13,709 nucleotides of DNA. It comes from Octopus sinensis. Its lineage: Eukaryota. The number at the start of each line of letters is the position of its first letter. The stretch's first letter is position 1. Of this stretch, positions 1-13,709 are shown piece by piece. Location of the stretch: assembly GCF_006345805.1 (NCBI RefSeq), contig NW_021826062.1, positions 1-13,709 on the forward strand. The letters are read 5' to 3'. The position numbers were made by a program, and so were the translations under genes. Below the pieces are notes generated by a model. That model had not been told where the DNA came from and made no database searches. It saw nothing but the letters and a program-made list of their open reading frames with translations.

Positions 1-220
1 CGCTCACCGCGACCTAGCTCCTGCGGAGGGCCTGTTTCATCAAACAACTATAAGTTTATGTAGATGTATAAAACTACCTGGTTTAATGTAACCCTATTCT
101 ATCGCCTGTTGATAAACGATGTTGTTGTCCGTCCTTCCTTGGCATATATGAATAAATTTTCTCTTCTACCTACCCTCGAGCATCCCACATACAGCTGTCC
201 ATGTGAAAAGCACTCACTCT

Positions 221-1135
221 CTAAAATAACCCAACTACCTTTAATGACTGTCCCTGGGCCTTGTTTATTGTCATTGCAAAACTCATCCTCAAAGGAAATT
301 GCAGCCTTTTAAATCTAAATGGTAATTCATCAGAAATTATCGGAATTCGTGGAATATAAACATCCTCACCTCTATACTTACCTGTTAATATCGTCGCCTC
401 TATTACGTTAGCCATTAAATTTTTGATAACTAACCTCGTTCCGTTGCATAATTTAGGTGGCGCAAGATTTCGTAATAAAACCACTGGAACGCCTATCTTT
501 AATTTTAAAAGATGATTCGGCATTCCAGAGGGATCTAAGGAGTTTAAAAATTCAACCGGATATTCGCAGGCTCTTTCATGGTCCATAATAACGTCTACCG
601 ATTTGTATATTCTTTCTTCTCCAGGGATTTTGATTAATAAATCTAAATTTATATTAAGTACCTCATCATTTAGCGGAGCTAATATAGCCCGTTCACGAAG
701 CCAGTCGAAATTTCTGTAGTGTTCTGATAGTTCAGAATATACTGAACTGAATAATTCTTCTGCTGTATTCACATATATACATAATTCTTCCGGTAGACTG
801 ATTTTCTGATCCTGTATATCTGAAGTAATTGCCCCATTTCCAATATCTAAAAGGATATTTGGAAATATGCTATTGACGCCTTGTAAATGTGCACATACAT
901 TTACATCTAAGCTTACCTTTTTGACGTGTGTCCACAGGTATGACGATTTGAGGCAGGCATTCAATTCATCCGCAGGCGTCCCTCTTTGAATAATTGGCAG
1001 AGTTTGTCTAAAATCACCTGCCAATACAACTATTGCTCCCCCAAAACAGTTCCTCACAATTCTTGATATCTCTATATGTTCTGTCGACTGCTTCGAATGC
1101 GCCCTTATGAGCCATTGTGCATTCATCCCAAACAA
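221..1135 (-). CDS. Helitron Pif1-like helicase, C-terminal part (fragment of RepHel)
   Basis: FGGAIVVLAGDFRQTLP, LLRNLAPPKLCNGTRL, FKRLQFPLRMSFAMTINKAQGQSL (Pif1 family motifs). Walker B IVWDECTM is in another frame at about 1111..1137. Confidence 0.9.
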   Translation of the reverse strand: MFGMNAQWLIRAHSKQSTEHIEISRIVRNCFGGAIVVLAGDFRQTLPIIQRGTPADELNACLKSSYLWTHVKKVSLDVNVCAHLQGVNSIFPNILLDIGNGAITSDIQDQKISLPEELCIYVNTAEELFSSVYSELSEHYRNFDWLRERAILAPLNDEVLNINLDLLIKIPGEERIYKSVDVIMDHERACEYPVEFLNSLDPSGMPNHLLKLKIGVPVVLLRNLAPPKLCNGTRLVIKNLMANVIEATILTGKYRGEDVYIPRIPIISDELPFRFKRLQFPLRMSFAMTINKAQGQSLKVVGLF

Positions 1136-1196
1136 TTAACCTAGAATTCATAATTCTATAACCCGCAACTGAATTTTTTTTACATTACAAACCGGT

Positions 1197-1808
1197 TCAG
1201 TATTGTAAGACAGGTTCAAGGATGTTGAATGTTGAATGTGCTGTTCGACCTCCATCTAAAAGAGTTGCAGCAATTCCAGACGATGCAACTGCTAATGCTA
1301 TTAGATTGTCGCTTCTCACCTTTGCTAACAATAAATTTAGAAGATAGGTCTTACCTGTACCACCTGGTGCATCAATAAAGATGATAGAACCATTTTCTTC
1401 TTGGATGACTCGGTTAATTTCTCTGTATATTTCCAACTGCCCAGGTAATAAGCTTTGTTCTCTTTCTTCCACAATTTTTTGAAGTTCTTCTAAATTATAA
1501 TGCTCATCTAAAGAATTTATATTATGAAGATCACTGATTGTTAAACCAAAATCACTTACACTCTTACCTACGACAGATATTAGCAATCTGTCTATCATGA
1601 TTAATCCAATGTTGAAAATCTCTTCATCAAAAATCGATCTATTCTTCTCTCTTAATATATCTTCGCACATGCTTTCTCGATGCCCTTCCCACAGTTGCTT
1701 AGGATTAGCTAACCCACAATGGGCTAGCATCAAAGTATATAAATACCTTAGTCGCGATGGAGAATCTGCAATTGCGGCTTCTGTTAAAGTCTGATTCCAG
1801 TTTGTCAT
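1197..1808 (-). CDS. Helitron helicase, N-terminal part with Walker A (fragment)
   Basis: FIDAPGGTGKTYLL (Walker A) and AVASSGIAATLLDGGRTAHSTF (motifs Ia/Ib). Confidence 0.9.
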   Translation of the reverse strand: MTNWNQTLTEAAIADSPSRLRYLYTLMLAHCGLANPKQLWEGHRESMCEDILREKNRSIFDEEIFNIGLIMIDRLLISVVGKSVSDFGLTISDLHNINSLDEHYNLEELQKIVEEREQSLLPGQLEIYREINRVIQEENGSIIFIDAPGGTGKTYLLNLLLAKVRSDNLIALAVASSGIAATLLDGGRTAHSTFNILEPVLQY

Positions 1809-1856
1809 CCTCTAAAAGACCTAATTTAAAACAGGCTTCTCTGTATGTTTCGCAGA

Positions 1857-3339
1857 CTACACCATTGACAGTCCGCAGATCAGTGAATGATTCTGGCCCT
1901 CGAAGTTGTGCAAAAGTAACCTAACACAATAACATTCAAAATTATTTGGATGCACGGTATATACTCTACCCAATGCATCCGTACTTACAATACCGTTATG
2001 TCCGTTTACTGGCTCTCCTCTTATCCTTCTTTTAAATTTCTTTCCGGCCACTTCCCACGTATAATATCTAGGCACATCAACATAATAAATTGTCTTCGCA
2101 AATTCATCAGTCTGACATAATTCAAAGTAGGCCATAAGCGTTGAATTTTTTGGATTCATAACTTGATTACGGGCAGTTTCTTCTCTAAAATATATCCTTT
2201 GTCCATTTTCCAAGTGCACCGCTAAATGCATTACTAATGGATATCTTTCATGAATCGGATATCCGAAAATTCTCCATGCTCCTTCATTACTGCAGATGAA
2301 TCGTCCATGCTGAAAAAAGCTTGGCTCGTCACGCTGCTCAATTGTAAAAATTGCTTGATCAGACCCTTTATTAATGTATTTACATACATATTTAATTGAT
2401 CTAATAGAATTACAAAATTCAACATTAATATGTGCATCAAAAATCTTACATAACAGAGGATTATAAGGCACCACCCACCTGTTGTCAACTGTTATTTCAT
2501 TTTCTTTTCCTTCGTGGAGAGTTGCAGTAAATCCTCCTTCAGCTGTGCCCCTTCTTCGGTAAAGCGGAAATCCATTTTCACCTGTTTGCGTATTATATAT
2601 TAAGTTTTTAGGGTACCCTTTAGAACACTTACCATTTCGCATACACGGTGATGATCTGTTATACATGCCACATGGACCATGTATCATATTTCTTTTGATG
2701 ATCTCGTATAATTCTCTATCTTCATTTGGATTTGGCAATTCTGCCCGTATGCAATCGTCTATTTCTGTAGCCCTAATTTTAGTGACTAACCATAACAATA
2801 TGTGTATATGTGGCAAAACTCTTTTTTGCCACTCTACTGTATACATGTGGCATCTTGTCTTTCCAAATATCTGTCCCTTTGTGAGAAGATCCATCATCTT
2901 ATCGACTTTCCGTTTAAAAACTCTCGCAATGATGTCTTGTCTATACTCTGCCTTTTGCCCTATAAATATGTTATCACTAATTTCTGGCCATTTTTGATTA
3001 CATGTAAAAGTGATAAACAAATCCGGTGTTCCGTAATTTCTTACGTACGTCATCGCATCTTGTGTGCGTTCATGCATATATCTTGGTCCTCCCGTGAATG
3101 ACGACGGCAAAATAACCATTAGACCTACATCAGTTACATTACCATCATTAATTATTGCATCTCTTAAATATATACTCCTCAGCTCTTAGTTTTCGCTGAT
3201 TTAAACGAATGTAGAGAAGTCTCTCTGCTTCTATCTTTGCATACATATCTACAATAAACTGATTAAATAAATGTCCTGTACGATGAATCATGTTGAAATC
3301 TTGCTCTCGTATCATTAACCTATAAGAATAAAATTCCAT
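1857..3339 (-). CDS. Helitron Rep (HUH/Y2 rolling-circle initiator) domain (fragments 3148..3339 and 1857..3119)
   Basis: LPSSFTGGPRYM, PDLFITFTCN (motif 1), VEWQKRVLPHIHILL (HUH, 2802..2810), KYVCKYINKG (two catalytic Tyr). Confidence 0.92.
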
Positions 3340-5687
3340 ACAACTGGTTTTTTTAGTATTGTTAAACCAGTAGATGGATTGATATGCATTACCCTAAAAT
3401 TGTAGCCATCCTCTCCTCTGGGGAATATTAATGGGTACTGAAGAGCATCGTATGATCGATGCGTTTCTGAAATTCTCATTAATCCAGTGGATCTTTTGTT
3501 TATGATAATGTCTCTAGTATCATATTGTTGACCTACTATTAAAATTCCTACCTGGTTTGATGTTGGTGCGTTGTATCGACGCTCATGTTCATTTGCAGGT
3601 GTTCTATCTGCATGTATAACCACCCTATAATCTTCATCAGTTGTAGATCCTAGGATAGATCTAAATGATAAAATATATGTATTGCAAATTTGCAACATAT
3701 TCTGTAACGAACTTATAATATCTGCACGTAGTCTTTGATCTGTTAAACATCTTTGGTTAAATTGATCCTCGTGATTATCTATAAAGTAAATTTGTAAAAA
3801 TTTAAAATCTTCGCCATCATTTGGCAGTAGTGACCCCATCCTATGATATACCTGCCCAAGCACTTTGAATGTTGGCATATAGCCATTCGGTTTGAAATTA
3901 CCGCTTGTCCCAAAAGATGTCATCTGAAAAGCATTATTGTACCTGCGAATATTATCAATGAAGTGCCTAGAAGAAGGTGTTTCATTTCTTAACAGTGTTA
4001 GAAGAGGTTCTGGAGGCGCCTCTAAAGGTGGTAAACGTACCTTTCCCCGACTGCAGCAGATCCCAATTGTTTCCCCCTTAAATTTCATTGCTAAGCACCA
4101 ACTGCATTTTTCCATTAAAGAACCTACATTACCTAAATTTCTATACTCAATGCCCCTATTATAATTAAATCCAGTGTTTTCTAAACCAATAGAATTTGAT
4201 ACCCTACTATTCCTGCGTGAAACTCGTAGTCGATTTTCTGTCTGATGTTCATCTTGAGTTAGTTGGTTCCTCCTAACTGAATTTCTTCTTGTGTTCCGAT
4301 CTCGTCGGCATTCCCTTTGTTGTTGTGACTCTTGTTCCCTACTAATAGCCGTTGCCATTCTATCTTGTTCTTGCCTATGTTCCCTCTGTTCTTGAGTCTC
4401 TTGTTCCCTACTAATAGCAGTTCCCATTCTATCTTGCTCTTGCCTATGTTCCCTTTGTTCTTCTGTCTCTTGTTCCCTACTAATAGCCTTCCCCATTCTA
4501 TCTTGTTCCTGCCTATGTTCCCTCTGTTCTTGTGACTCTTGTTCCCTACTAATAGCCGTTGCCATTTTATCTTGTTCTTGCCTATGTTCCCTCTGTTCTT
4601 GAGTCTCTTGTTCCCTACTAATAGCAGTTCCCATTCTATCTTGCTCTTGCCTATGTTCCCTTTGTTCTTCTGTCTCTTGTTCCCTACTAATAGCCGTTGC
4701 CATTCTATCTTGTTCTTGCCTATGTTCCCTCTGTTCTTGTGACTCTTGTTCCCTACTAATAGCCGTTGCCATTCTATCTTGTTCTTGCCTATGTTCCCTC
4801 TGTTCTTGTGACTCTTGTTCCCTACTAATAGCCGTTGCCATTCTATCTTGTTCTTGCCTATGTTCCCTCTGTTCTTGAGTCTCTTGTTCCCTACTAATAG
4901 CAGTTCCCATTCTATCTTGCTCTTGCCTATGTTCCCTTTGTTCTTCTGTCTCTTGTTCCCTACTAATAGCCGTTGCCATTCTATCTTGTTCTTGTCTATG
5001 TTCCCTCTGTTCTTGTGACTCTTGTTCCCTACTAATAGCCGTTGCCATTCTATCTTGTTCTTGCCTATGTTCCCTCTGTTCTTGAGTCTCTTGTTCCCTA
5101 CTAATAGCAGTTCCCATTCTATCTTGCTCTTGCCTATGTTCCCTTTGTTCTTCTGTCTCTTGTTCCCTACTAATAGCCTTCCCCATTCTATCTTGTTCCT
5201 GCCTATGTTCCCTCTGTTCTTGTGACTCTTGTTCCCTACTAATAGCCTTCCCCATTCTATCTTGTTCTTGTCTATGTTCCCTCTGTTCTTGTGACTCTTG
5301 TTCCCTAGTAATAGCCTTCCCCATTCTATCTTGTTCTTTTCTGAAATTCCTCATATCATCGGTCTCTTGCCTCCTTCTTATAGTTGCTCTTAATCTGTTG
5401 CATTCTTGTCGATGTTCCTTTTGATCTTGTGACTCGGATGCCCTTTTCATAGCCATGCGCAATCTATTCTTTTCTCGTCTAAAATTTGAGATCGAAAACG
5501 TCTCATTTGAACTATTTACTTTAATTTTAAATTTATTATCTAGACTAACACTTATATCATCGAAACTATATCGTTTAAAATTATTATTTCCTACACTAAC
5601 TTTTTTACGTTTCGTGCTACATAAATTATCTAAAACCTGTGTATTTTCCAAATATTCTTTGTTTCTCAATAGGTAATCCGTTTCCAT
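3315..5687 (-). CDS. Helitron RepHel N-terminal region with STPR-like 23-aa repeats and zinc-binding motif (exon 2 portion)
   Basis: 14 x EQE(S/T)xEQREHRQEQDRMxxAISR, then CSWC...ICCSRGKV, IRRYNNAFQMTSFG, FKVLGQVYH and SYDALQYPLIFPRGEDG, typical of Helitron N-terminal regions. Confidence 0.88.
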   Translation of the reverse strand: METDYLLRNKEYLENTQVLDNLCSTKRKKVSVGNNNFKRYSFDDISVSLDNKFKIKVNSSNETFSISNFRREKNRLRMAMKRASESQDQKEHRQECNRLRATIRRRQETDDMRNFRKEQDRMGKAITREQESQEQREHRQEQDRMGKAISREQESQEQREHRQEQDRMGKAISREQETEEQREHRQEQDRMGTAISREQETQEQREHRQEQDRMATAISREQESQEQREHRQEQDRMATAISREQETEEQREHRQEQDRMGTAISREQETQEQREHRQEQDRMATAISREQESQEQREHRQEQDRMATAISREQESQEQREHRQEQDRMATAISREQETEEQREHRQEQDRMGTAISREQETQEQREHRQEQDKMATAISREQESQEQREHRQEQDRMGKAISREQETEEQREHRQEQDRMGTAISREQETQEQREHRQEQDRMATAISREQESQQQRECRRDRNTRRNSVRRNQLTQDEHQTENRLRVSRRNSRVSNSIGLENTGFNYNRGIEYRNLGNVGSLMEKCSWCLAMKFKGETIGICCSRGKVRLPPLEAPPEPLLTLLRNETPSSRHFIDNIRRYNNAFQMTSFGTSGNFKPNGYMPTFKVLGQVYHRMGSLLPNDGEDFKFLQIYFIDNHEDQFNQRCLTDQRLRADIISSLQNMLQICNTYILSFRSILGSTTDEDYRVVIHADRTPANEHERRYNAPTSNQVGILIVGQQYDTRDIIINKRSTGLMRISETHRSYDALQYPLIFPRGEDGYNFRVMHINPSTGLTILKKPVVWNFILIG
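4338..5303 (-). repeat. Coding minisatellite: 14 x 69-bp units (23 aa), with degenerate units on both sides (to about 4270 and 5441)
   Basis: Unit boundaries at 5303 and 4338 span 966 bp = 14 x 69. Units are nearly identical. Confidence 0.97.
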
Positions 5688-5690
5688 ACA

Positions 5691-5715
5691 CTAAAAATAA
5701 ATCTAATATTAATAC
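5691..5715 (-). other. Predicted 25-nt spliceosomal intron in RepHel
   Basis: Minus strand AAA GAG|GTATTAATATTAGATTTATTTTTAG|TGT ATG GAA. Removal fuses ORF 5626..6063 in frame to ORF 3315..5687 (...FSKE-CMETDY...). Confidence 0.75.
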
Positions 5716-6063
5716 CTCTTTACTGAAGTTATTTTCATCGAAACGGATCGATTGATCATCTTCTGACAACTGATGAGTAATCTTATTTTCTCTGACATTA
5801 CATAAGCCTACACTACCTACAGTTCCTCCACCTAGATTACCTACGCATGCACCTACACTACCTACAGATCCTCCACCTAGATTACCTACGCATGCACCTA
5901 CACTACCTACACTCCCTGCGCCCACATTTCCTGCATTTCCTACACCTATATTACCTATGCCCGCACCTACATTACTTACACTCCCCCCAAGCTCAGTTTG
6001 TTCCTTTGTTTTGGCATCCACGATATCTTCGGTGAAACTCTCCATATTCTGACTACCCACCAT
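5716..6063 (-). CDS. Putative exon 1 of RepHel: Gly/Val/Ser-rich low-complexity N-terminus
   Basis: ATG at 6063, open frame up to the predicted GT donor at 5715; contains GGGSVGSVGACVGNL repeats. Confidence 0.65.
5807..5911 (-). repeat. 45-bp coding tandem repeat, about 2.3 copies (15-aa VGSVGACVGNLGGG(S/T))
   Basis: CCTACACTACCTACA recurs at 5807, 5852 and 5897. Confidence 0.9.
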
Positions 6064-6112
6064 ACTAATCTTATTTTTGACGCCACGCAGTAATACATAT
6101 TGAACATTTAAC

Positions 6113-6304
6113 GCTCTTAAGCCTTGTCTTATCTTAATTGCTATCTGAAGTGGTTTATCTAATCAAGGTCACTAAGCCTAATTTCCGGAAACTGTAAAGG
6201 GCTCTTAAGCCTTATCTTAATTGCTATCTGAAGTGGTTTGTCTAATCAAGGTTACTAAGCTAAATTTCCGGAAACTGTAAAGGGCTCTTAAGCATTATCT
6301 TAAT
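6113..6304. repeat. 83-bp tandem repeat (2.2 copies) upstream of RepHel
   Basis: GCTCTTAAGC starts at 6113, 6201 and 6284 (the first unit has a 5-nt insertion). Each full unit contains the palindrome TTTCCGGAAA. Confidence 0.92.
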
Positions 6305-6357
6305 AGGCTGTTAAAAAAATTGACAGGTTTTTAAAGATAAGTGAAAATAAGAATTAA

Positions 6358-6411
6358 TGTCGCGCGCAATGGATGAAACGCGTGCCTAAAGTGAAACGCT
6401 GTGAACCTTGA
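6358..6411 (+). repeat. Left terminal inverted repeat
   Basis: TGTCGCGCGCAATGGATGAAACGCGTGCCTAAAGTGAAACGCTGTGAACCTTGA matches the reverse complement of 7904..7956. Confidence 0.95.
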
Positions 6412-6589
6412 GAAAACCACAAAAAACCTCGAAAATAAAATTAACAATCCTTTGATGAAAACAGGAATAAAACCGAGAAATCAATTTTTTATTATTATCG
6501 TTTGAAAGATTAACAATTTATTTAAATAATGGTTAGCCATTTTAAAATTACCAAAAAATTAAAATATTTTAACCTGAAAATTTACCTGT

Positions 6590-7823
6590 CTAAATTTTTT
6601 TAACTTGTGATTTAAATACTATTTTTTCATTTCCATCTTGATCTTTTATTTTAACTCTATTATTTGAAATTAAATCTTCAACAGTAAAGATTTGTTGATG
6701 ATAAAAAGATTCTAATTTTCGCTTCTTCGTCCTTTGATTTGTATCAAAATCTTTTTTCAGCAAAACATTATTTCCAATTGCAATTTCTTTCAATGTTTTT
6801 GAAAAATTTCGTTCCATTCTTTCAAGATATTTGTCATTTATGATAGTTTGATTTTCATGTTCTTCAATTAATTCATCATCATTATAATAAGAAATGTTAT
6901 ATCCTCTTGTTCGGAAAAAAGCCATAAATGGTGACATATTATAGAAGAATGAATTGAAATATTGTACTGATATATAATTTTTTCTAACACATCCACCCAT
7001 TTTTTCTGTTTGTCTGTGAGTTCTTTTTGAATCCATCTGCAAATGGTTTGATTGCAACGCTCCACTTGTCCCTGTGATTCTGGATGTCTTGGACGTCCCC
7101 TTTTATGAATTATTTTAAATTCTTCACATAATGACGTTATTTCTGAATTAACAAATTCTGTTCCGTTGTCAGACTGCAGAATTTTTGGTGGACCATAGGA
7201 AAGAAATATAGTTTTCAATGATTCCGAAACTGTAACTGCTTCTTTATTTTCTATTTTTTAGCAAAGCAAAATTTTGAATAAATATCTATGACATTCATAA
7301 GATATTTATAGGAATCATTTATATCTGCATAAAACGAAAGATCGACTAAATCAACTTGATAGCTAAAAATAAGCTATTGAATGAACCGTTCTCGAGGTTC
7401 TTTGGCTACTATGTTGACTAGTGGATATTTTGTCTTTAAGGGCTGACTTCGCTGACATTTGTGGCATGATGATATTACATCCCTAATTATGTTTCGATTG
7501 ATTATGCAAAAATTATTTTTGCAATACTCTTCCATTTTATTAAATCCATAGTGATAAATTGAATGAATCCTTTCACAATGCAGTTTCATGGATTCGAAAT
7601 CATTTGAGGCAATTACCAATATTTTGTTTCCATCAGATTGTTTATAATATAGCACACCTATCATTAGATTTAATAGTACCTCCAGAATTTACGAAATTTC
7701 TACATTTTTTGAGAAAACGAAATCTGTTTAGTCTTGAAAAATCTTCTGGTATTGTATTATTTATTAAAAATCAAGAATATTCTTATACTCCTGATCATCC
7801 TTTACAATGTTGGCAAATCTCAT
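6590..7823 (-). CDS. Integrase-type transposase (H2C2 zinc domain, DD35E core, C-terminal SH3-like region); 396 aa after removing 2 introns and restoring three 1-nt homopolymer losses
   Basis: ATG at 7823 (MRFANIVKDD...); HSIYH...CHKC; YQVDLVD; ILQSDNGTEF with E of QGQVER 35 residues after D; stop TAG at 6590..6592. Frameshifts at about 7768, 7256 and 6941. Confidence 0.85.
7363..7386 (-). other. Predicted 24-nt intron in the integrase (contains an in-frame TAG)
   Basis: GAA CG|GTTCATTCAATAGCTTATTTTTAG|C TAT CAA GTT GAT. Splicing restores PRERYQVDLVD, the normal context of the first catalytic Asp. Confidence 0.8.
7658..7679 (-). other. Predicted 22-nt intron in the integrase
   Basis: GGA G|GTACTATTAAATCTAATGATAG|GT GTG CTA. 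Splicing gives NFVNSGGVLYYK; a branch-point-like CTAAT lies just upstream of the AG. Confidence 0.78.
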
Positions 7824-7903
7824 TTCGATAATATTATCTCAAAGTGCGCAATCATCTTTAATATTGACTTGATAATTGTCAAGAGCTTAATTGAAGGTTA
7901 AAT

Positions 7904-7956
7904 TCAAGGTCACGGCGTTTCACTTTAGGCACGCGTTTCATTTATGGCGCGTGACA
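7904..7956 (-). repeat. Right terminal inverted repeat
   Basis: Reverse complement is TGTCACGCGCCATAAATGAAACGCGTGCCTAAAGTGAAACGCCGTGACCTTGA. Confidence 0.95.
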
Positions 7957-8034: not shown

Positions 8035-8483
8035 ATGAAGAACGAAGAAGCTAGAAACGAAGACCCGTGTCAACTCACTCACTCTACCAGCGCATGTGCT
8101 ACCTGCTCCCGAAAGAACTCTCGGAACTGGGTATATTCTGCTCCTCTTGTGGGGTCTACCATCATATTGGCTGCGCGAAGCTAAGGAAGAAGGCTGTCAA
8201 GGGCCTTCGTAATTGGCTTTGCCCACCTTGCTTACGCATGTTCACCTTTTCTGAACCCCGAGCAAAACGCTCTGATGTATTTTCAATCACAGACGGAGAT
8301 TCAATTATTCTGCTGCTCTCTTCTATTTGAAAATCCAGAAGGATCCCTTTAAAGATCCCCAAGTCAGCCAGAGTTTCTGCTGCCTCGTGCCTCAACAGTC
8401 TTGTTGAAAGGGCACTCCAGTCACGTGACACAGAATCATGGATCCGCCTTTTCTGTTTTGCACCTCTTGGACTTGGAACTTCT
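8035..8483 (+). pseudogene. N-terminal PHD finger and linker of the retrotransposon ORF (1-nt frameshift near 8126, in-frame TGA at 8328..8330)
   Basis: ATG at 8035: ...CATC...; then GIFCSSC...HIGC...WLCPPC (C4HC3). After the TGA the frame continues KSRRIPLKIPKSARVSAASCL directly into ORF 8484..10985. Confidence 0.75.
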
Positions 8484-10985
8484 GTGCACTCTTCAGAAAA
8501 CCGCAAGTCTTTGGCTTCTGAAATTAAAACGCATCTAAAATCCCTCCCTGAACGCCCTATTGAGGAACTAATTGATCAGCCTGGGCGGCACGAATTTCAT
8601 CGGCCACGCTTGGGAGATGAGAGGGAGTGGATCAGAGGAGAAGTTTCTCGTAAATTCATGGTGGGGGACCTGCGGGGAGCACTTCGTGTTATTTCCAACG
8701 ACGGCAAAATTTTGCCGACGACACCTGAGATCTTGGATCTACTCAAATGCAAGCACCCGTCGGCCCCGACGAATGTGCGGCCGTTCCATTTTATAAATTC
8801 CACACTGGATGCGAAAACACTTACGGAGGAGATACTCGCATGCATTTCCTCTTTCAATGGGGGCAGCAGTGGCGGAATCGATGGCCTGCGTCCAAGCCAC
8901 CTGAAGGATCTGGTTTCGGCCTCAGCGCACGAGGCTGGCCGGTCTCTGGCCGGCTCGCTTACAGCTCTGGTCCAGCGCATTATCGAAGGGGACATTCCCG
9001 TGATCGCTAGGGAGCTCCTTTTTTCTGCCCATCTTCTTGCTTTCGGCAAAAAAGACGGTGGGATACGCCCAATTGCTATTGGCAACGTTTTTAGAAGACT
9101 TGCTGCTAAAGTCGCTTCACGAAGGGCATCACAGAGACTCAGCTGCGAACTTTCGCCACTTCAGCTGGGTGTGGGAATCCCAAATGGCTGCGAAGCTGCA
9201 GTGCATGCAACCAGAGAATTCTTCTCACAAAAAGGGAACTCAAATGGTCCCGGAGTTCTAGCTATAAAACTGGACATTAAGAATGCATTCAACAGCCTGA
9301 GGAGAGATGTGATTCTCGAAACCTGCTTAGAAAGGGCTCCTGATATTATCGGCTTGGTTCACTTGGCATATGGGTCAGACAGCTCTCTTCTTTTTGGAGA
9401 TGAAATTATTAAATCGTGCACAGGAGTTCAGCAGGGCGACCCTATCGGTCCACTGCTGTTCGCCCTCGGCATTGACTCTGCCGTACGGAAAGTCGATTCT
9501 TTTTTCAACCTGTGGTACCTCGATGATGCAACCATCGGGGGCCCCTCTGATACTGTGATTCAGGATATTTTCAACATAATTCCCACCCTCCGTGAAATTG
9601 GACTGGAAGTAAACGTCAGCAAGTGCGAGCTTATAAATATCTCTTGCTCGCACGAAGAATTCGGTTCCGCACTAAACAAGCTGCAACTTCGCCTGCCGGG
9701 GCTGACAACCACACCCATTGATGATGTTCTATTCCTCGGCGCGCCCATGGGCCAAATCCAACTTAAGAAGTCGCTATCTGAGAAAGCCAAATGGGTCACT
9801 GATTTCACAAATAAGCTCATGTTGCTTGATTCTCACTACGGATTTTTCGTGCTCAGAGCAAACCTCATGTTGCCAAGGCTTCTATATTTGCTGCCAACTT
9901 CAAACTGCTCAATACAATCCGACATGCTTCAATCGCTCGATACTTCTCTGAAGTTGGCCGCTGAAAAAATCCTAAACATATCCTTTGATGACGCTGGTTG
10001 GACTTGCTGCAAATTACCTCTACGCCTTGGCGGAGTTGGACTCCGTTCACCTCTGGACATGGCTCTTCCTGCATTCCTCTCCTCACGTGCGAGCTCCCAA
10101 GCCCTCATCACCCAAATCCTACGTAACTCTCGCGGATTGGAAGAGGACCGGGTTTTCTCTGGAGCTTGCGAATTCTGGAAGGGATCTGGATTGGCCATTC
10201 CATCTAACATTTCACGCCAATGGGATTGGGATGATATCTCCAGCAAAGCTAAAATGGAAGCAATCAGACCTACACTGGATCAGCATCGCCTCGCTTGTTT
10301 CGGTGCCGCTGCCAGACCTGAAAGTGGGGCGTGGCTTAATGCCCTCCCTTGCTCCCAATCTGGAACCCTTCTCGATAATGACTGTGTGAGGATTGGCGTA
10401 GCAATGCGCTTGGGACTTAATGTCTGTTCGGGGGGCCGATGCCGATGTGGGAGTAAAGTCGATACCAAAGGACTACATCCCCTGTCATGCAGAAGGAGTG
10501 CTGGCCGTGCTCCCAGACACTCTGCTATCAACGAGACTATTTCGGCTGCGTTACAAGCAGCTGGATTCCCGACAGAACTGGAACCCGTTGGGCTTGACCG
10601 TGGAGACGGTAAACGCCCAGATGGAGTCACCATTTTCCCGTGGAGTAATGGGAAATGCCTCGCGTGGGACTCCACGTGCACAGACACCTTCTCAAAGACC
10701 AATATAGTTGACTCCGCGATCAGTCCAGGCTCAGCCGCTGAGAAGGCTGAGATACATAAAGCTCAGAAATATTCCAACCTGCTGGACAACTTTATCTTCT
10801 CCCCAATATCTGTAGAAACCTCCGGGGCCATGAGCCAAAAATCGTTTGAACTCGTCGTGAGGGTCGGGAATCTGATCTCGAGAAGACGGAGAGAGCCTCG
10901 GGAGAAGCAATGGTTGTTCCAAAGAATATCCATTGCGATCCTGAGGGGCAACGTCTTCTCGATCATCAGCAGCTTAAGATTATGA
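8484..10985 (+). CDS. Reverse transcriptase plus restriction-like endonuclease
   Basis: SSGGIDGLRP, KKDGGIRPIAIG, KLDIKNAFNS, GVQQGDPIGP and WYLDD (9513..9527). C-terminal CRC...HPLSC knuckle, RH, KRPDG (10611..10625), WDSTC and KAQKY. Confidence 0.95.
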   Translation: MHSSENRKSLASEIKTHLKSLPERPIEELIDQPGRHEFHRPRLGDEREWIRGEVSRKFMVGDLRGALRVISNDGKILPTTPEILDLLKCKHPSAPTNVRPFHFINSTLDAKTLTEEILACISSFNGGSSGGIDGLRPSHLKDLVSASAHEAGRSLAGSLTALVQRIIEGDIPVIARELLFSAHLLAFGKKDGGIRPIAIGNVFRRLAAKVASRRASQRLSCELSPLQLGVGIPNGCEAAVHATREFFSQKGNSNGPGVLAIKLDIKNAFNSLRRDVILETCLERAPDIIGLVHLAYGSDSSLLFGDEIIKSCTGVQQGDPIGPLLFALGIDSAVRKVDSFFNLWYLDDATIGGPSDTVIQDIFNIIPTLREIGLEVNVSKCELINISCSHEEFGSALNKLQLRLPGLTTTPIDDVLFLGAPMGQIQLKKSLSEKAKWVTDFTNKLMLLDSHYGFFVLRANLMLPRLLYLLPTSNCSIQSDMLQSLDTSLKLAAEKILNISFDDAGWTCCKLPLRLGGVGLRSPLDMALPAFLSSRASSQALITQILRNSRGLEEDRVFSGACEFWKGSGLAIPSNISRQWDWDDISSKAKMEAIRPTLDQHRLACFGAAARPESGAWLNALPCSQSGTLLDNDCVRIGVAMRLGLNVCSGGRCRCGSKVDTKGLHPLSCRRSAGRAPRHSAINETISAALQAAGFPTELEPVGLDRGDGKRPDGVTIFPWSNGKCLAWDSTCTDTFSKTNIVDSAISPGSAAEKAEIHKAQKYSNLLDNFIFSPISVETSGAMSQKSFELVVRVGNLISRRRREPREKQWLFQRISIAILRGNVFSIISSLRL

Positions 10986-11027
10986 TGATCATTTTCGCTC
11001 TTTGATTTTAATAAGATTCTATTTTTG

Positions 11028-11040
11028 AAAAAAAAAAAAA
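11028..11040 (+). other. Poly-A tail (A13) of the retrotransposon
   Basis: Starts 42 nt after the stop codon; AATAAG at 11010..11015 may be a variant polyadenylation signal. Confidence 0.85.
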
Positions 11041-11982
11041 GTTTTTTTGTTATTTTCTTTTTTTATTTTTAAAAATTTTATTTTATTTTTTATTTTTTTT
11101 TTATTGTGTTTTTATTTTATTTTTTTTATTTAAATTTTTTTTTATTTTTTAAATTTTTTTCTTTTTTTGTGTTTTTATTTTCTTTTTTTATTTTTTAACT
11201 TTTTTTTTTATTTTTTATTTTTTTGTTTTTATTTTCTTATTTTTTGTTTTTTTTGGGTTTTATTTTCTTTTTTTATTTTTTAAATTTTTTATTTTATGTT
11301 TTAATTTTTTTTTCTTTTTTTATTTTTTAACTTTTTTTGATTTTTTTGATTTTTTTTGTTTTTTATTTTCTTATTTTTTGCTTTTTTGTGTTTTTATTTT
11401 CTTTTTTTATTTTTAAATTTTTTCTTCTTTTTTTGTGTTTTATTTTTCCTTTTTTTATTTTTCGATTTTTTGTTTTTTATTTTCTTTTTTTGTCTTTTGC
11501 GGTGTTTTATTTTATTTTTTTTTGATTTTTTAACTTTTTTTTGATTTTTTAACTTTTTTTTTGATTTTTTTCTTATTTTTTGTTTTTTTATTGTGTTTTT
11601 ATTTTCTTTTTTTATTTTTTAATTTTTTTTATTTTTTGATTTTTAAACTTTTTTTTGAATTTTTTCTTATTTTTTCTTTTTTATTGGTTTTTTTTTCTTT
11701 TTTATTTTTTTTAAATTTTTTTATTTTTTTATTTATTTTTTAAATTTTTTTTTATTTTTTGAATTTTTTTTTATTTTTTTATTTTTTGTTTTTTTTTTAT
11801 TTTTTGTTTTTTATTGTGTTTTTATTTTTTTATTCTTTTTTTGTGTTTTATTTTCTTTTTTTGATTTTTTTGTTTTATTTTCTTTTTTTATTTTTTAGTT
11901 TTTTTTATTTTTTGATTTTTATTGTGTTTTTTTTATTTTTCGATTTTTATTGTGTTTTTATTTTATTTTTTTATTTTTATTG
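11041..11982. repeat. T-rich low-complexity degenerate minisatellite
   Basis: T runs punctuated by A/G/C, with recurring TTGTGTTTTTATTTT, TTTTAAATTTTT and TTTTGATTTTT motifs. Confidence 0.9.
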
Positions 11983-12019: not shown

Positions 12020-13709
12020 AGATTGATTTGAGAAATCAATTGAGGAAGCCCGCTGCCTGTATGGAAAGCGAGTTCCCTCGGAGTATGGCTATTCCGATCC
12101 TTTGTCTTAGCCATACTCCTTCACGAGGATCATTTTTCTTTGTGGCGAGCATTCTTCCGAGTTCGCGCAAGAAATGAGCAAAGCCTGCGCCGAGACGCTG
12201 TCAAGCTGGCAGTGCCCCCCTTGTATTGGAAACGAGGTCCCCAGGCGGGAAACAACAGCCCAGCCAAACTTTACATCACCACATACTGACCACATTCTCT
12301 TGAAGATCTCGAACCTCCGGAAAGCCAGGAAAATCCCAGTAAAAATCCCAAAAGGAGCACGTATTGCCGCAGCAACGTGCCTCTCAGACCTCATTGACAA
12401 CGCACTGTCCTCTGACAGCTGGGAATCCTGGCTAAAACTTATATGCTTCGCACCTGTTGCACTCGGAACACCTACAACGGAATCTGATAACCAGAGTAAA
12501 GAAACAAACCCCCGGCTAAACTTAACCGGAAACTGAAAGGAAGAATATTGAATTACGGCAGTCATAGCATACACGCAATACTGAACAGCCACTTATTGCC
12601 AATGCGGTCAAAACCAGAGGAGCATTCACCAAAGATGCCCCCAACAACTGAAGGAGCGAGTGAATCGGAAACTTCTGGAGGGCGATGTGCGGGCAGCCTA
12701 CGGGTTATCACGTCCGATGACACCGTGCTGTCTAGCACCCCCGAGGTCCTGAATACCTTAATTCAGAAACACCCAAGTGCACCGAGTGATTATGTAAAGT
12801 TCTCGAATCCTGAAGGAACCCAAGAGATTATGATTACCGAATCAGAAGTGCGGCGCGGAATCGCTTCCTTTGCCGCTAGCAGCAGCGGAGGCTTGGATGG
12901 GTTACGCCCCGGCCATATCAAGGACCTAACGTCCACCTACACCTCGGAAGCAGGACGCTGTCTTGTTAAATCGATCACGGACCTAATAAGGAAAATGGTG
13001 AATGGCGACATCCCGGAGTATGCCAGAGAATTGCTCTTCTCCGCAAGGCTACTCGCGTTCAAAAAAACCAACGGAGGAATCCGCCCCATTGCGGTCGGAA
13101 ACTATTTCAGAAGACTCGCAGCGAAGATTGCTTCGACCCTCGTGAGCCGCCCACTCGGTGCGGAGTTCTTCCCAGAACAAATGGGTGTTAGTATCCAGAA
13201 CGGATGTATGTGAGCAGCGGTTCATGCGGCAAGGCGTTTCTTCACACAGAAGAATACTGCAAACGAATGCATTGGAATCAAATTGGACATAACCAATGCA
13301 TTCATTTCTCTCAGAAGAGACTCCATTATGGAAACGTGTTGGAAGAGGGCTCCCATGCTTTTCCCTCTTGTTAAATTGTCATACGGAGAAGATACGTCTC
13401 TGGTTTTTGATGATGAAATCATCAAATCAAAAACTGGTGTCCAGCAGAGAGATCCGCTCGGACCCCTCTTATTTGCTGCCTGACAATTGATGATGTTGTG
13501 AGATCAATTGACGCACAACTAATCTCTGGTACCTCGACGATGCCACAATTGGAGGATCATTCGAGGAAACATACAATTCTTTACGTCAAGCACTTCCCGC
13601 ATTAAAACACTTGGGATTGGACATCAATATTAACAAATCAGAGTTAATAAATGTCTCATACTCAAACACCGACTTTCTCTCTATCAAGGAGTTTTTCAAC
13701 GAACTGCTT
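12020..13709 (+). mobile_element. Second, diverged CRE-like non-LTR retrotransposon; degraded and truncated by the window end
   Basis: WQCPPC (PHD remnant), RKIPVKIPKGARIAAATCL, SSGGLDGLRPGH, KKTNGGIRPIAVG, LDITNAF, GVQQRDPLGP and WYLDD (about 13527..13541). Collinear with the first element but with several stops and frameshifts. Confidence 0.88.
12174..13709 (+). pseudogene. Disrupted PHD-RT ORF of the second retrotransposon
   Basis: Fragments 12174..12536, 12548..13213 and 13283..13483, plus a downstream WYLDDATIGG frame; stop at 13211; QQGD changed to QQRD. Confidence 0.85.

Follow-up and report, generated by a model that had tools for sequence, protein, structure and literature searches.

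Short introns in dicyemids, introns in Ginger1 transposons (0-4 per family), and the uptake of introns by mobile genes have all been published. Dicyemid introns have a mean length of 26.2 nt in one report (PMC2222250) and a median of 27 nt in another (PMC6543705). The introns described here resemble the micro-introns of D. acuticephalum, D. japonicum, and Dicyema sp. in that they probably come from the same group of organisms and have the same length range, GT-AG ends, and weak splice signals, as these are described in PMC2222250, PMC6543705, and PMC13644364. The published dicyemid examples are found in cellular genes, while those reported here are in transposons. Ginger1 elements as described by Bao et al. 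(2010, PMC2836005) encode a Gypsy-like integrase with H2C2 and DDE motifs and have TGTNR ends, terminal inverted repeats (TIRs) of 40-270 bp, and GT-AG introns that vary in number among the families of one genome. Intron uptake by mobile or foreign genes is known from Fanzor/HERMES (bioRxiv 2023.06.13.544871) and a hemipteran mannosidase (PMC6444547), and introns have been predicted in Tc1/mariner elements of Paramecium (PMC3464196). Compared with mobile genes that gained host-type introns, the present case involves introns at the lower size limit of animals, at about 14 positions, in one family of 400-aa proteins of a single genome. The origin of new spliceosomal introns is still an open question, and animals offer few clean examples of recent gain.

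The window analyzed here is the entire 13.7-kb contig C2533 (13,709 nt) of a 2.72-Gb assembly, and its nine scanned ORFs belong only to transposons, with no marker or housekeeping gene among them. A Helitron lies on the minus strand. Its coding exon 1 (5716..6063; 116 codons, Gly/Val-rich) is followed by a predicted 25-nt micro-intron (5691..5715; GT..TAG, phase 0) in the N-terminal region of RepHel, and then by exon 2 with in-frame 69-bp repeats, Rep, and PIF1 helicase, plus the 3' region (1..5690). Nested within the Helitron 5' leader, also on the minus strand, is a 1.6-kb Ginger-like cut-and-paste transposon (6358..7956). It is bounded by a pair of 47-nt TIRs (5' at 7910..7956, starting TGTCA; 3' at 6358..6404) that are 89% complementary. 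This copy was inserted with a short deletion of target DNA and has no target site duplication (TSD). Its transposase consists of exon 1 (7680..7823, ATG at 7823), micro-intron 1 (7658..7679; 22 nt, GT-AG, phase 1), exon 2 with an H2C2 zinc finger (7387..7657), micro-intron 2 (7363..7386; 24 nt, GT-AG, phase 2), and exon 3 with the DDE/rve core and C-terminus (6590..7362). The zinc finger match (PF17921, E 1.8e-5) falls slightly below the curated cut-off, and micro-intron 2 directly precedes the first catalytic D. The window also contains two related non-LTR retroelements (8055-10985 and 12111-13709), which we take to be HERO-like, with a reverse transcriptase domain and a PHD finger upstream of it. 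A 1-kb T-rich low-complexity tract (approximately 11020-11980) lies between them. The 884-aa reverse transcriptase ORF (8331..10985, plus strand) is free of introns, as expected.

Judged by its termini and predicted protein, the nested element is Ginger-like in a broad sense: it has TIRs with TGTNR ends, a single Gypsy-like integrase with H2C2 and DDE, and no reverse transcriptase or LTR. It would fail as a Ginger1 on its TSD and C-terminal domain. Ginger1 has a 4-bp CCGG/CCGT TSD and a length of 2.6-7 kb as described in PMC2836005, whereas the elements here are 1.6-2.2 kb with a 5-bp AT-rich TSD, which is exact in 11 of 15 two-ended copies and is also found in five other families. The protein of about 400 aa ends at residue 396 with only rve in exon 3, so that the OTU/Ulp1 C-terminal domain is absent, unlike in Ginger1, and its introns of 22-30 nt differ in length from those of Ginger1. 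An F-P-F-Y pattern upstream of the zinc finger resembles YPYY when compared by eye with the text definition of that motif, while the GPY/F triplet is absent, making GPY/F degenerate at most. The fit to Ginger2/Tdd also appears to be only partial. The TGTNR ends, AT-rich target, and H2C2 plus DDE are similar, and a 5-bp TSD also occurs in TDD-4 and in TDD-5. Metazoan Ginger2 elements, on the other hand, have 4-bp TSDs (RTATAY) and lack YPYY, while the element here has a 5-bp TSD, apparently has YPYY, and is much shorter. Among the homologues returned there was no protein named as Ginger2 or KRBA2. Compact elements of 1.6-2.2 kb with 5-bp AT-rich TSDs are represented by L006, L163, L182, L214, L227, and L231. 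Together with standalone integrases of 400-450 aa, most of them unnamed, they make up a large clade that may be an undescribed group. The named members from outside the assembly are microsporidian (Nosema granulosis KAF9752809.1 and Enteropsectra breve KAI5152326.1), and most others are nameless.

The two Ginger-like segments have the properties expected of introns. The original prediction held that removing three GT..AG segments restores the reading frames of the two transposons. All three segments are present at the positions given above, and their removal joins the frame as ..NFSKE^CMETD.. in the Helitron and as ..NSG^GVLYYK.. and ..EPRE^RYQVDL.. in the Ginger-like gene. This local restoration stands, but both window copies are still broken after splicing by private 1-2-nt indels, which in the Ginger-like gene are a 1-nt deletion in exon 1 and two frameshifts in exon 3. 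The intact state was therefore judged from other copies. In copy L006 a 396-aa transposase is obtained only when both segments are removed; the longest open stretch is 261 aa unspliced and 261 or 358 aa with one segment removed. This copy was compared with eight intron-free homologues by means of a purpose-written spliced protein-to-DNA aligner, run with GT-AG favored and with no splice-site preference. With GT-AG favored, the exact boundaries were recovered for intron 1 with seven of the eight homologues (the other begins downstream of this intron) and for intron 2 with all eight. With no preference, six of the eight still needed the 22-nt and 24-nt insertions, and the remaining two are partial or noisy. 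By chance, both sites would show a GT..AG register with a probability of about 0.001. Among 83 homologues from outside the assembly, 79 cover junction 2 and 56 cover junction 1; of these, 70 and 44, respectively, agree with the spliced protein in length at the junction.

Conservation of the segments among copies and families also points to introns. A copy lacking either segment would have counted against the original prediction, and none was found among the 25 and 27 Ginger-like copies covering the two sites; the GT..AG ends are intact in 23/25 and 26/27. The sister family L185, with 66% amino acid identity to the window family, has GT-AG introns of 22 nt and 23 nt at the sites of micro-introns 1 and 2, and these are unrelated in sequence to those of the window family. 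Identity by codon position between L185 and the window family is 0.76/0.82/0.49, and the exons flanking the segments show purifying selection. Dead copies might have acquired the segments by chance insertion or through assembly error, or the segments might be removed at the DNA level as with ciliate IESs; the assembly does have many 1-2-nt indel errors. These explanations are highly improbable given that the segments are fixed in all covering copies, that the same codon is interrupted by new sequence in diverged families, and that the flanking exons are under purifying selection. The GT..AG ends, the collinearity on removal, and the maintenance of position and phase while sequence diverges support the view that the segments behave as spliceosomal (U2-type) micro-introns. 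Contigs from four read sets of one study cross both Ginger-like segments unspliced and without joints; as these reads may be DNA, they are uninformative on expression.

The Helitron segment presents a weaker case. The element itself has Rep and PIF1 helicase domains (PF14214 and PF05970 matches) and a 3' CTRR end, by which it qualifies as a Helitron; like other RepHel elements it has a CTAG 3' end followed by T and lacks TIRs. In the window this CTAG end is cut off by the contig edge. The present Helitrons differ in having one intron of 25-33 nt near the N-terminus, beyond which a single exon extends for more than 5 kb. No further introns were found in the Helitron, and the remaining frame breaks in the window, including all those in exon 2, are 1-2-nt indels. 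The N-terminal part contains approximately 16 in-frame 69-bp repeats (window 4252-5400) encoding 23-aa EQRE-rich units. All 13 alignments of family A across the site, counting the window, contain the 25-nt segment, and at the same codon boundary subfamily B has a 33-nt GT-AG segment that holds in-frame stops. The site lies in a non-conserved region, where collinearity can be judged solely against this sister subfamily. Two codons past the intron there is an in-frame ATG in family A, so that RepHel could be made without splicing; subfamily B lacks this ATG. Open frames of 1763 and 1846 aa are present in copies L104 and L105, respectively. No single copy gave a full spliced RepHel from ATG to stop, and indels occur downstream of the intron in both of the merged copies that were tested. 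At window position 5692 a diverged variant of the Helitron, represented by a deep contig (read set X1), has one extra base within the 25-nt intron. Overall, it is predicted with high confidence that the GT-AG segments are real introns, and with somewhat less confidence for the Helitron segment considered separately. A dicyemid U2 spliceosome would then remove the segments to give the 396-aa Ginger-like transposase and the full RepHel protein.

It was noted originally that two of the segments share a 3' end although the elements are unrelated. This common 10-nt end, TTATTTTTAG, turns out to reflect a T-rich tract and base composition rather than a conserved motif: stretches of at least 10 nt are common to 2 of the 496 intron pairs, and the 10-nt end is not kept in introns at the same positions in sister families. 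Among 3n introns, 4 of 14 transposon introns and none of 12 host-gene introns are stopless, from few introns in each class. Another explanation is that the mRNA mostly keeps the segments and that they serve as a brake on the production of transposase, with splicing restricted, for example, to a certain stage or to the germline. Retention leads to an immediate stop or a frameshift in all three cases (an in-frame stop for 7363-7386), and very short introns are spliced inefficiently in microsporidia according to work cited in PMC13644364. Transposon introns are also shorter and more AT-rich than those of host genes (medians of 24 and 27 nt, inner GC of 16% and 25%), based on a small and non-independent sample. 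However, in the same sample no splice-site feature was found that separates the two classes, and near-identical copies with intact TSDs indicate recent transposition. A brake is thus quite unlikely compared with ordinary splicing.

The contig appears to come from a Dicyema genome that was assembled together with that of its host. The original prediction had raised the possibility of a parasite contig inside a host assembly, and genes on other transposon-bearing contigs bear this out. Contig C8694, which carries both Helitron and Ginger-like copies, encodes an ATP synthase beta identical at 404 of 414 residues (98%) to that of D. acuticephalum (I7GPQ3), while the other matches listed are at or below 83%. 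The gene is intron-free across the 414 aa compared, and Dicyema ATP synthase beta has been published as intron-free (PMC2222250). Host-gene introns under 30 nt, which the prediction also required, are abundant: nine actin and HSP70 genes gave 37 GT-AG calls with a median of 27 nt, 34 of them 24-34 nt, after two non-canonical calls were dropped. These genes are on unplaced contigs, several of which bear the same transposons, whereas the first intron of the chromosomal actins is kilobases long. The ATP synthase match together with the tiny actin and HSP70 introns identifies the compartment as Dicyema, and the window contig is provisionally assigned to it through transposon families common to the compartment. 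None of the transposon matches lie on the chromosome-scale contigs C1-C30 (0/116, 0/41, 0/57, and 0/111, from the best 40 of 89, 40 of 151, 40 of 1052, and 99 of 3451 candidates). A microsporidian source, suggested by the Nosema and Enteropsectra matches, is ruled out by the intron-rich actins, which are approximately 78-87% identical to an intron-free reference actin, and by the Dicyema match. From dicyemid biology as outlined in PMC12953835, the host would be a cephalopod.

Other features of the assembly concern the same compartment. A substantial Dicyema genome is found in unplaced contigs, such as C1794 (1.29 Mb), C7755 (0.85 Mb), C8460, and C8694. Near-duplicate genes occur in it (BiP on C7755 and C8845, actin on C12602 and C6094), suggesting that haplotypes or a second dicyemid species may be present. 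There are two types of 18S in the assembly, one of about 2.6 kb on the chromosomes and one of 1667 nt on C1618 (L051, G000:C1618:6101-7767); the latter is presumably from the dicyemid.

Short intron length is a property of the organism. The median of 27 nt in actin and HSP70 matches the known dicyemid norm. The earlier suggestion that these transposons are adapted to a miniature-intron spliceosome is thus correct in that the segments behave as micro-introns, but their size is that of the organism, and micro-introns are not required since there are intron-free Ginger-like and Tc1-like families in the same compartment. Micro-introns as a rule for all DNA transposons can be rejected, as none were found in 29 Tc1/IS630-like loci of the compartment (324 aa compared). 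A transposase fragment (L017:3780-4250; L178; L011), presumably hAT/CGGBP1-like, has a 27-nt GT-AG intron holding an in-frame stop; this site is occupied in a 55%-identical relative and empty in a 37%-identical one.

The distribution of introns among Ginger-like families suggests that they were gained repeatedly. At least 111 matches gave 73 aligned loci, which were grouped into 16 families at 88% nucleotide identity, and introns were called by a majority-of-references rule. There are 31 GT-AG calls of 22-30 nt (median 24) across 12 of the 16 families; of these, one is wrongly positioned owing to a deletion in the copy concerned, and another (L170) is possibly coding sequence. L162, L213, and L217 are intron-free across the aligned region, and L218 has an AT..AG remnant. 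L213 is nearly identical to the database protein P0212. The introns occupy about 14 positions, nearly all of which are limited to one supported clade or family in a careful tree. Positions 49/1 and 138/2 are found in the window family and L185, and both are absent from their sister L162 (support 97/96). Positions 148/2 and 281/1 occur in one clade and 50/2, 123/0, and 168/2 in another, with 365/0 in both, while L208 has 117/0, 159/0, and 240/2. Position 138/2 is also found in L223, whose grouping with the window family is rejected (AU p 4e-9), so this position would have to be gained in parallel or lost several times. The AU test also rejects a monophyletic grouping of the dicyemid families, with p values of 0.002 (25 rows, after removal of six distant or long-branched outside rows) and 1e-36 (95 rows, after removal of five short ones), the AU tests having been run on quick LG+G4 trees.

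The clade-specific positions, the interleaved intron-free families, and the non-monophyly point to repeated gain of micro-introns, and on this evidence gain is probable over loss. The homologues from outside the assembly were drawn from collections biased toward uninterrupted ORFs and transcripts, and their lack of introns is therefore no neutral argument for gain; a fairer one comes from the intron-free families of the genome itself. The introns could instead descend from an intron-rich ancestral Ginger-like gene that lost different ones in each lineage via reverse-transcribed mRNA. The compartment is rich in reverse transcriptases, position 138/phase 2 is common to two distant clades, and the Hydra Ginger1 families described in PMC2836005 range from 0 to 4 introns, with some positions anciently conserved. 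An ancestral origin is nevertheless unlikely, for the other 13 or so positions each occur in just one supported clade or family, families lacking introns lie interspersed among the others (L162, for one, beside the window's clade), and some positions are only 4-18 nt apart in the alignment (49/1 and 50/2, 236/0 and 240/2, 117/0 and 123/0), which would be hard to accommodate in one ancestor. Taken together, it is very likely that the contig is Dicyema co-assembled with its host, and that the segments are ordinary spliceosomal introns of dicyemid size, and it is likely that the lineages gained them independently.

The likely route of gain would be insertion of short AT-rich DNA that already bears GT and AG. 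Such DNA could be tolerated and then fixed in an organism with a minimal splice signal, little beyond GT and AG some 25 nt apart, because the signal is reduced to GT..AG, as described in PMC13644364. Two other sources of new introns were rejected. Tandem duplication is not apparent, with 1 of 31 introns resembling the flanking exon at p<0.05, and an Introner origin is not either, as there is no strong similarity beyond AT-richness among the 496 intron pairs.

Micro-introns of this repeated, clade-specific kind, within a compact clade of Ginger-like elements, seem not to have been described. No published introns in dicyemid transposons, and no publication of this Ginger-like clade, were found in the literature outside subscription journals, Repbase, and the repeat tables in the supplement of PMC6736024. 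The result has practical consequences. Annotation pipelines with an intron floor of 30-50 nt would label these elements dead, and catalogues of host genes and repeats can be contaminated by a co-assembled Dicyema genome whose contigs reach 1.3 Mb. A multi-family transposase set in which micro-introns occupy about 14 clade-specific positions within a single genome makes the rate of gain, the site preference, and the origin of the intron sequence testable. As a more tentative scenario, the compact 5-bp-TSD clade may have entered dicyemids several times without introns, after which introns of 22-30 nt would have arisen de novo in each lineage separately, with neither Introners nor exon duplication involved and even twice at the same codon. 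These would then form a datable series of the birth of introns of minimal size, and each gain might act as a one-way valve that locks the element into hosts with micro-introns.
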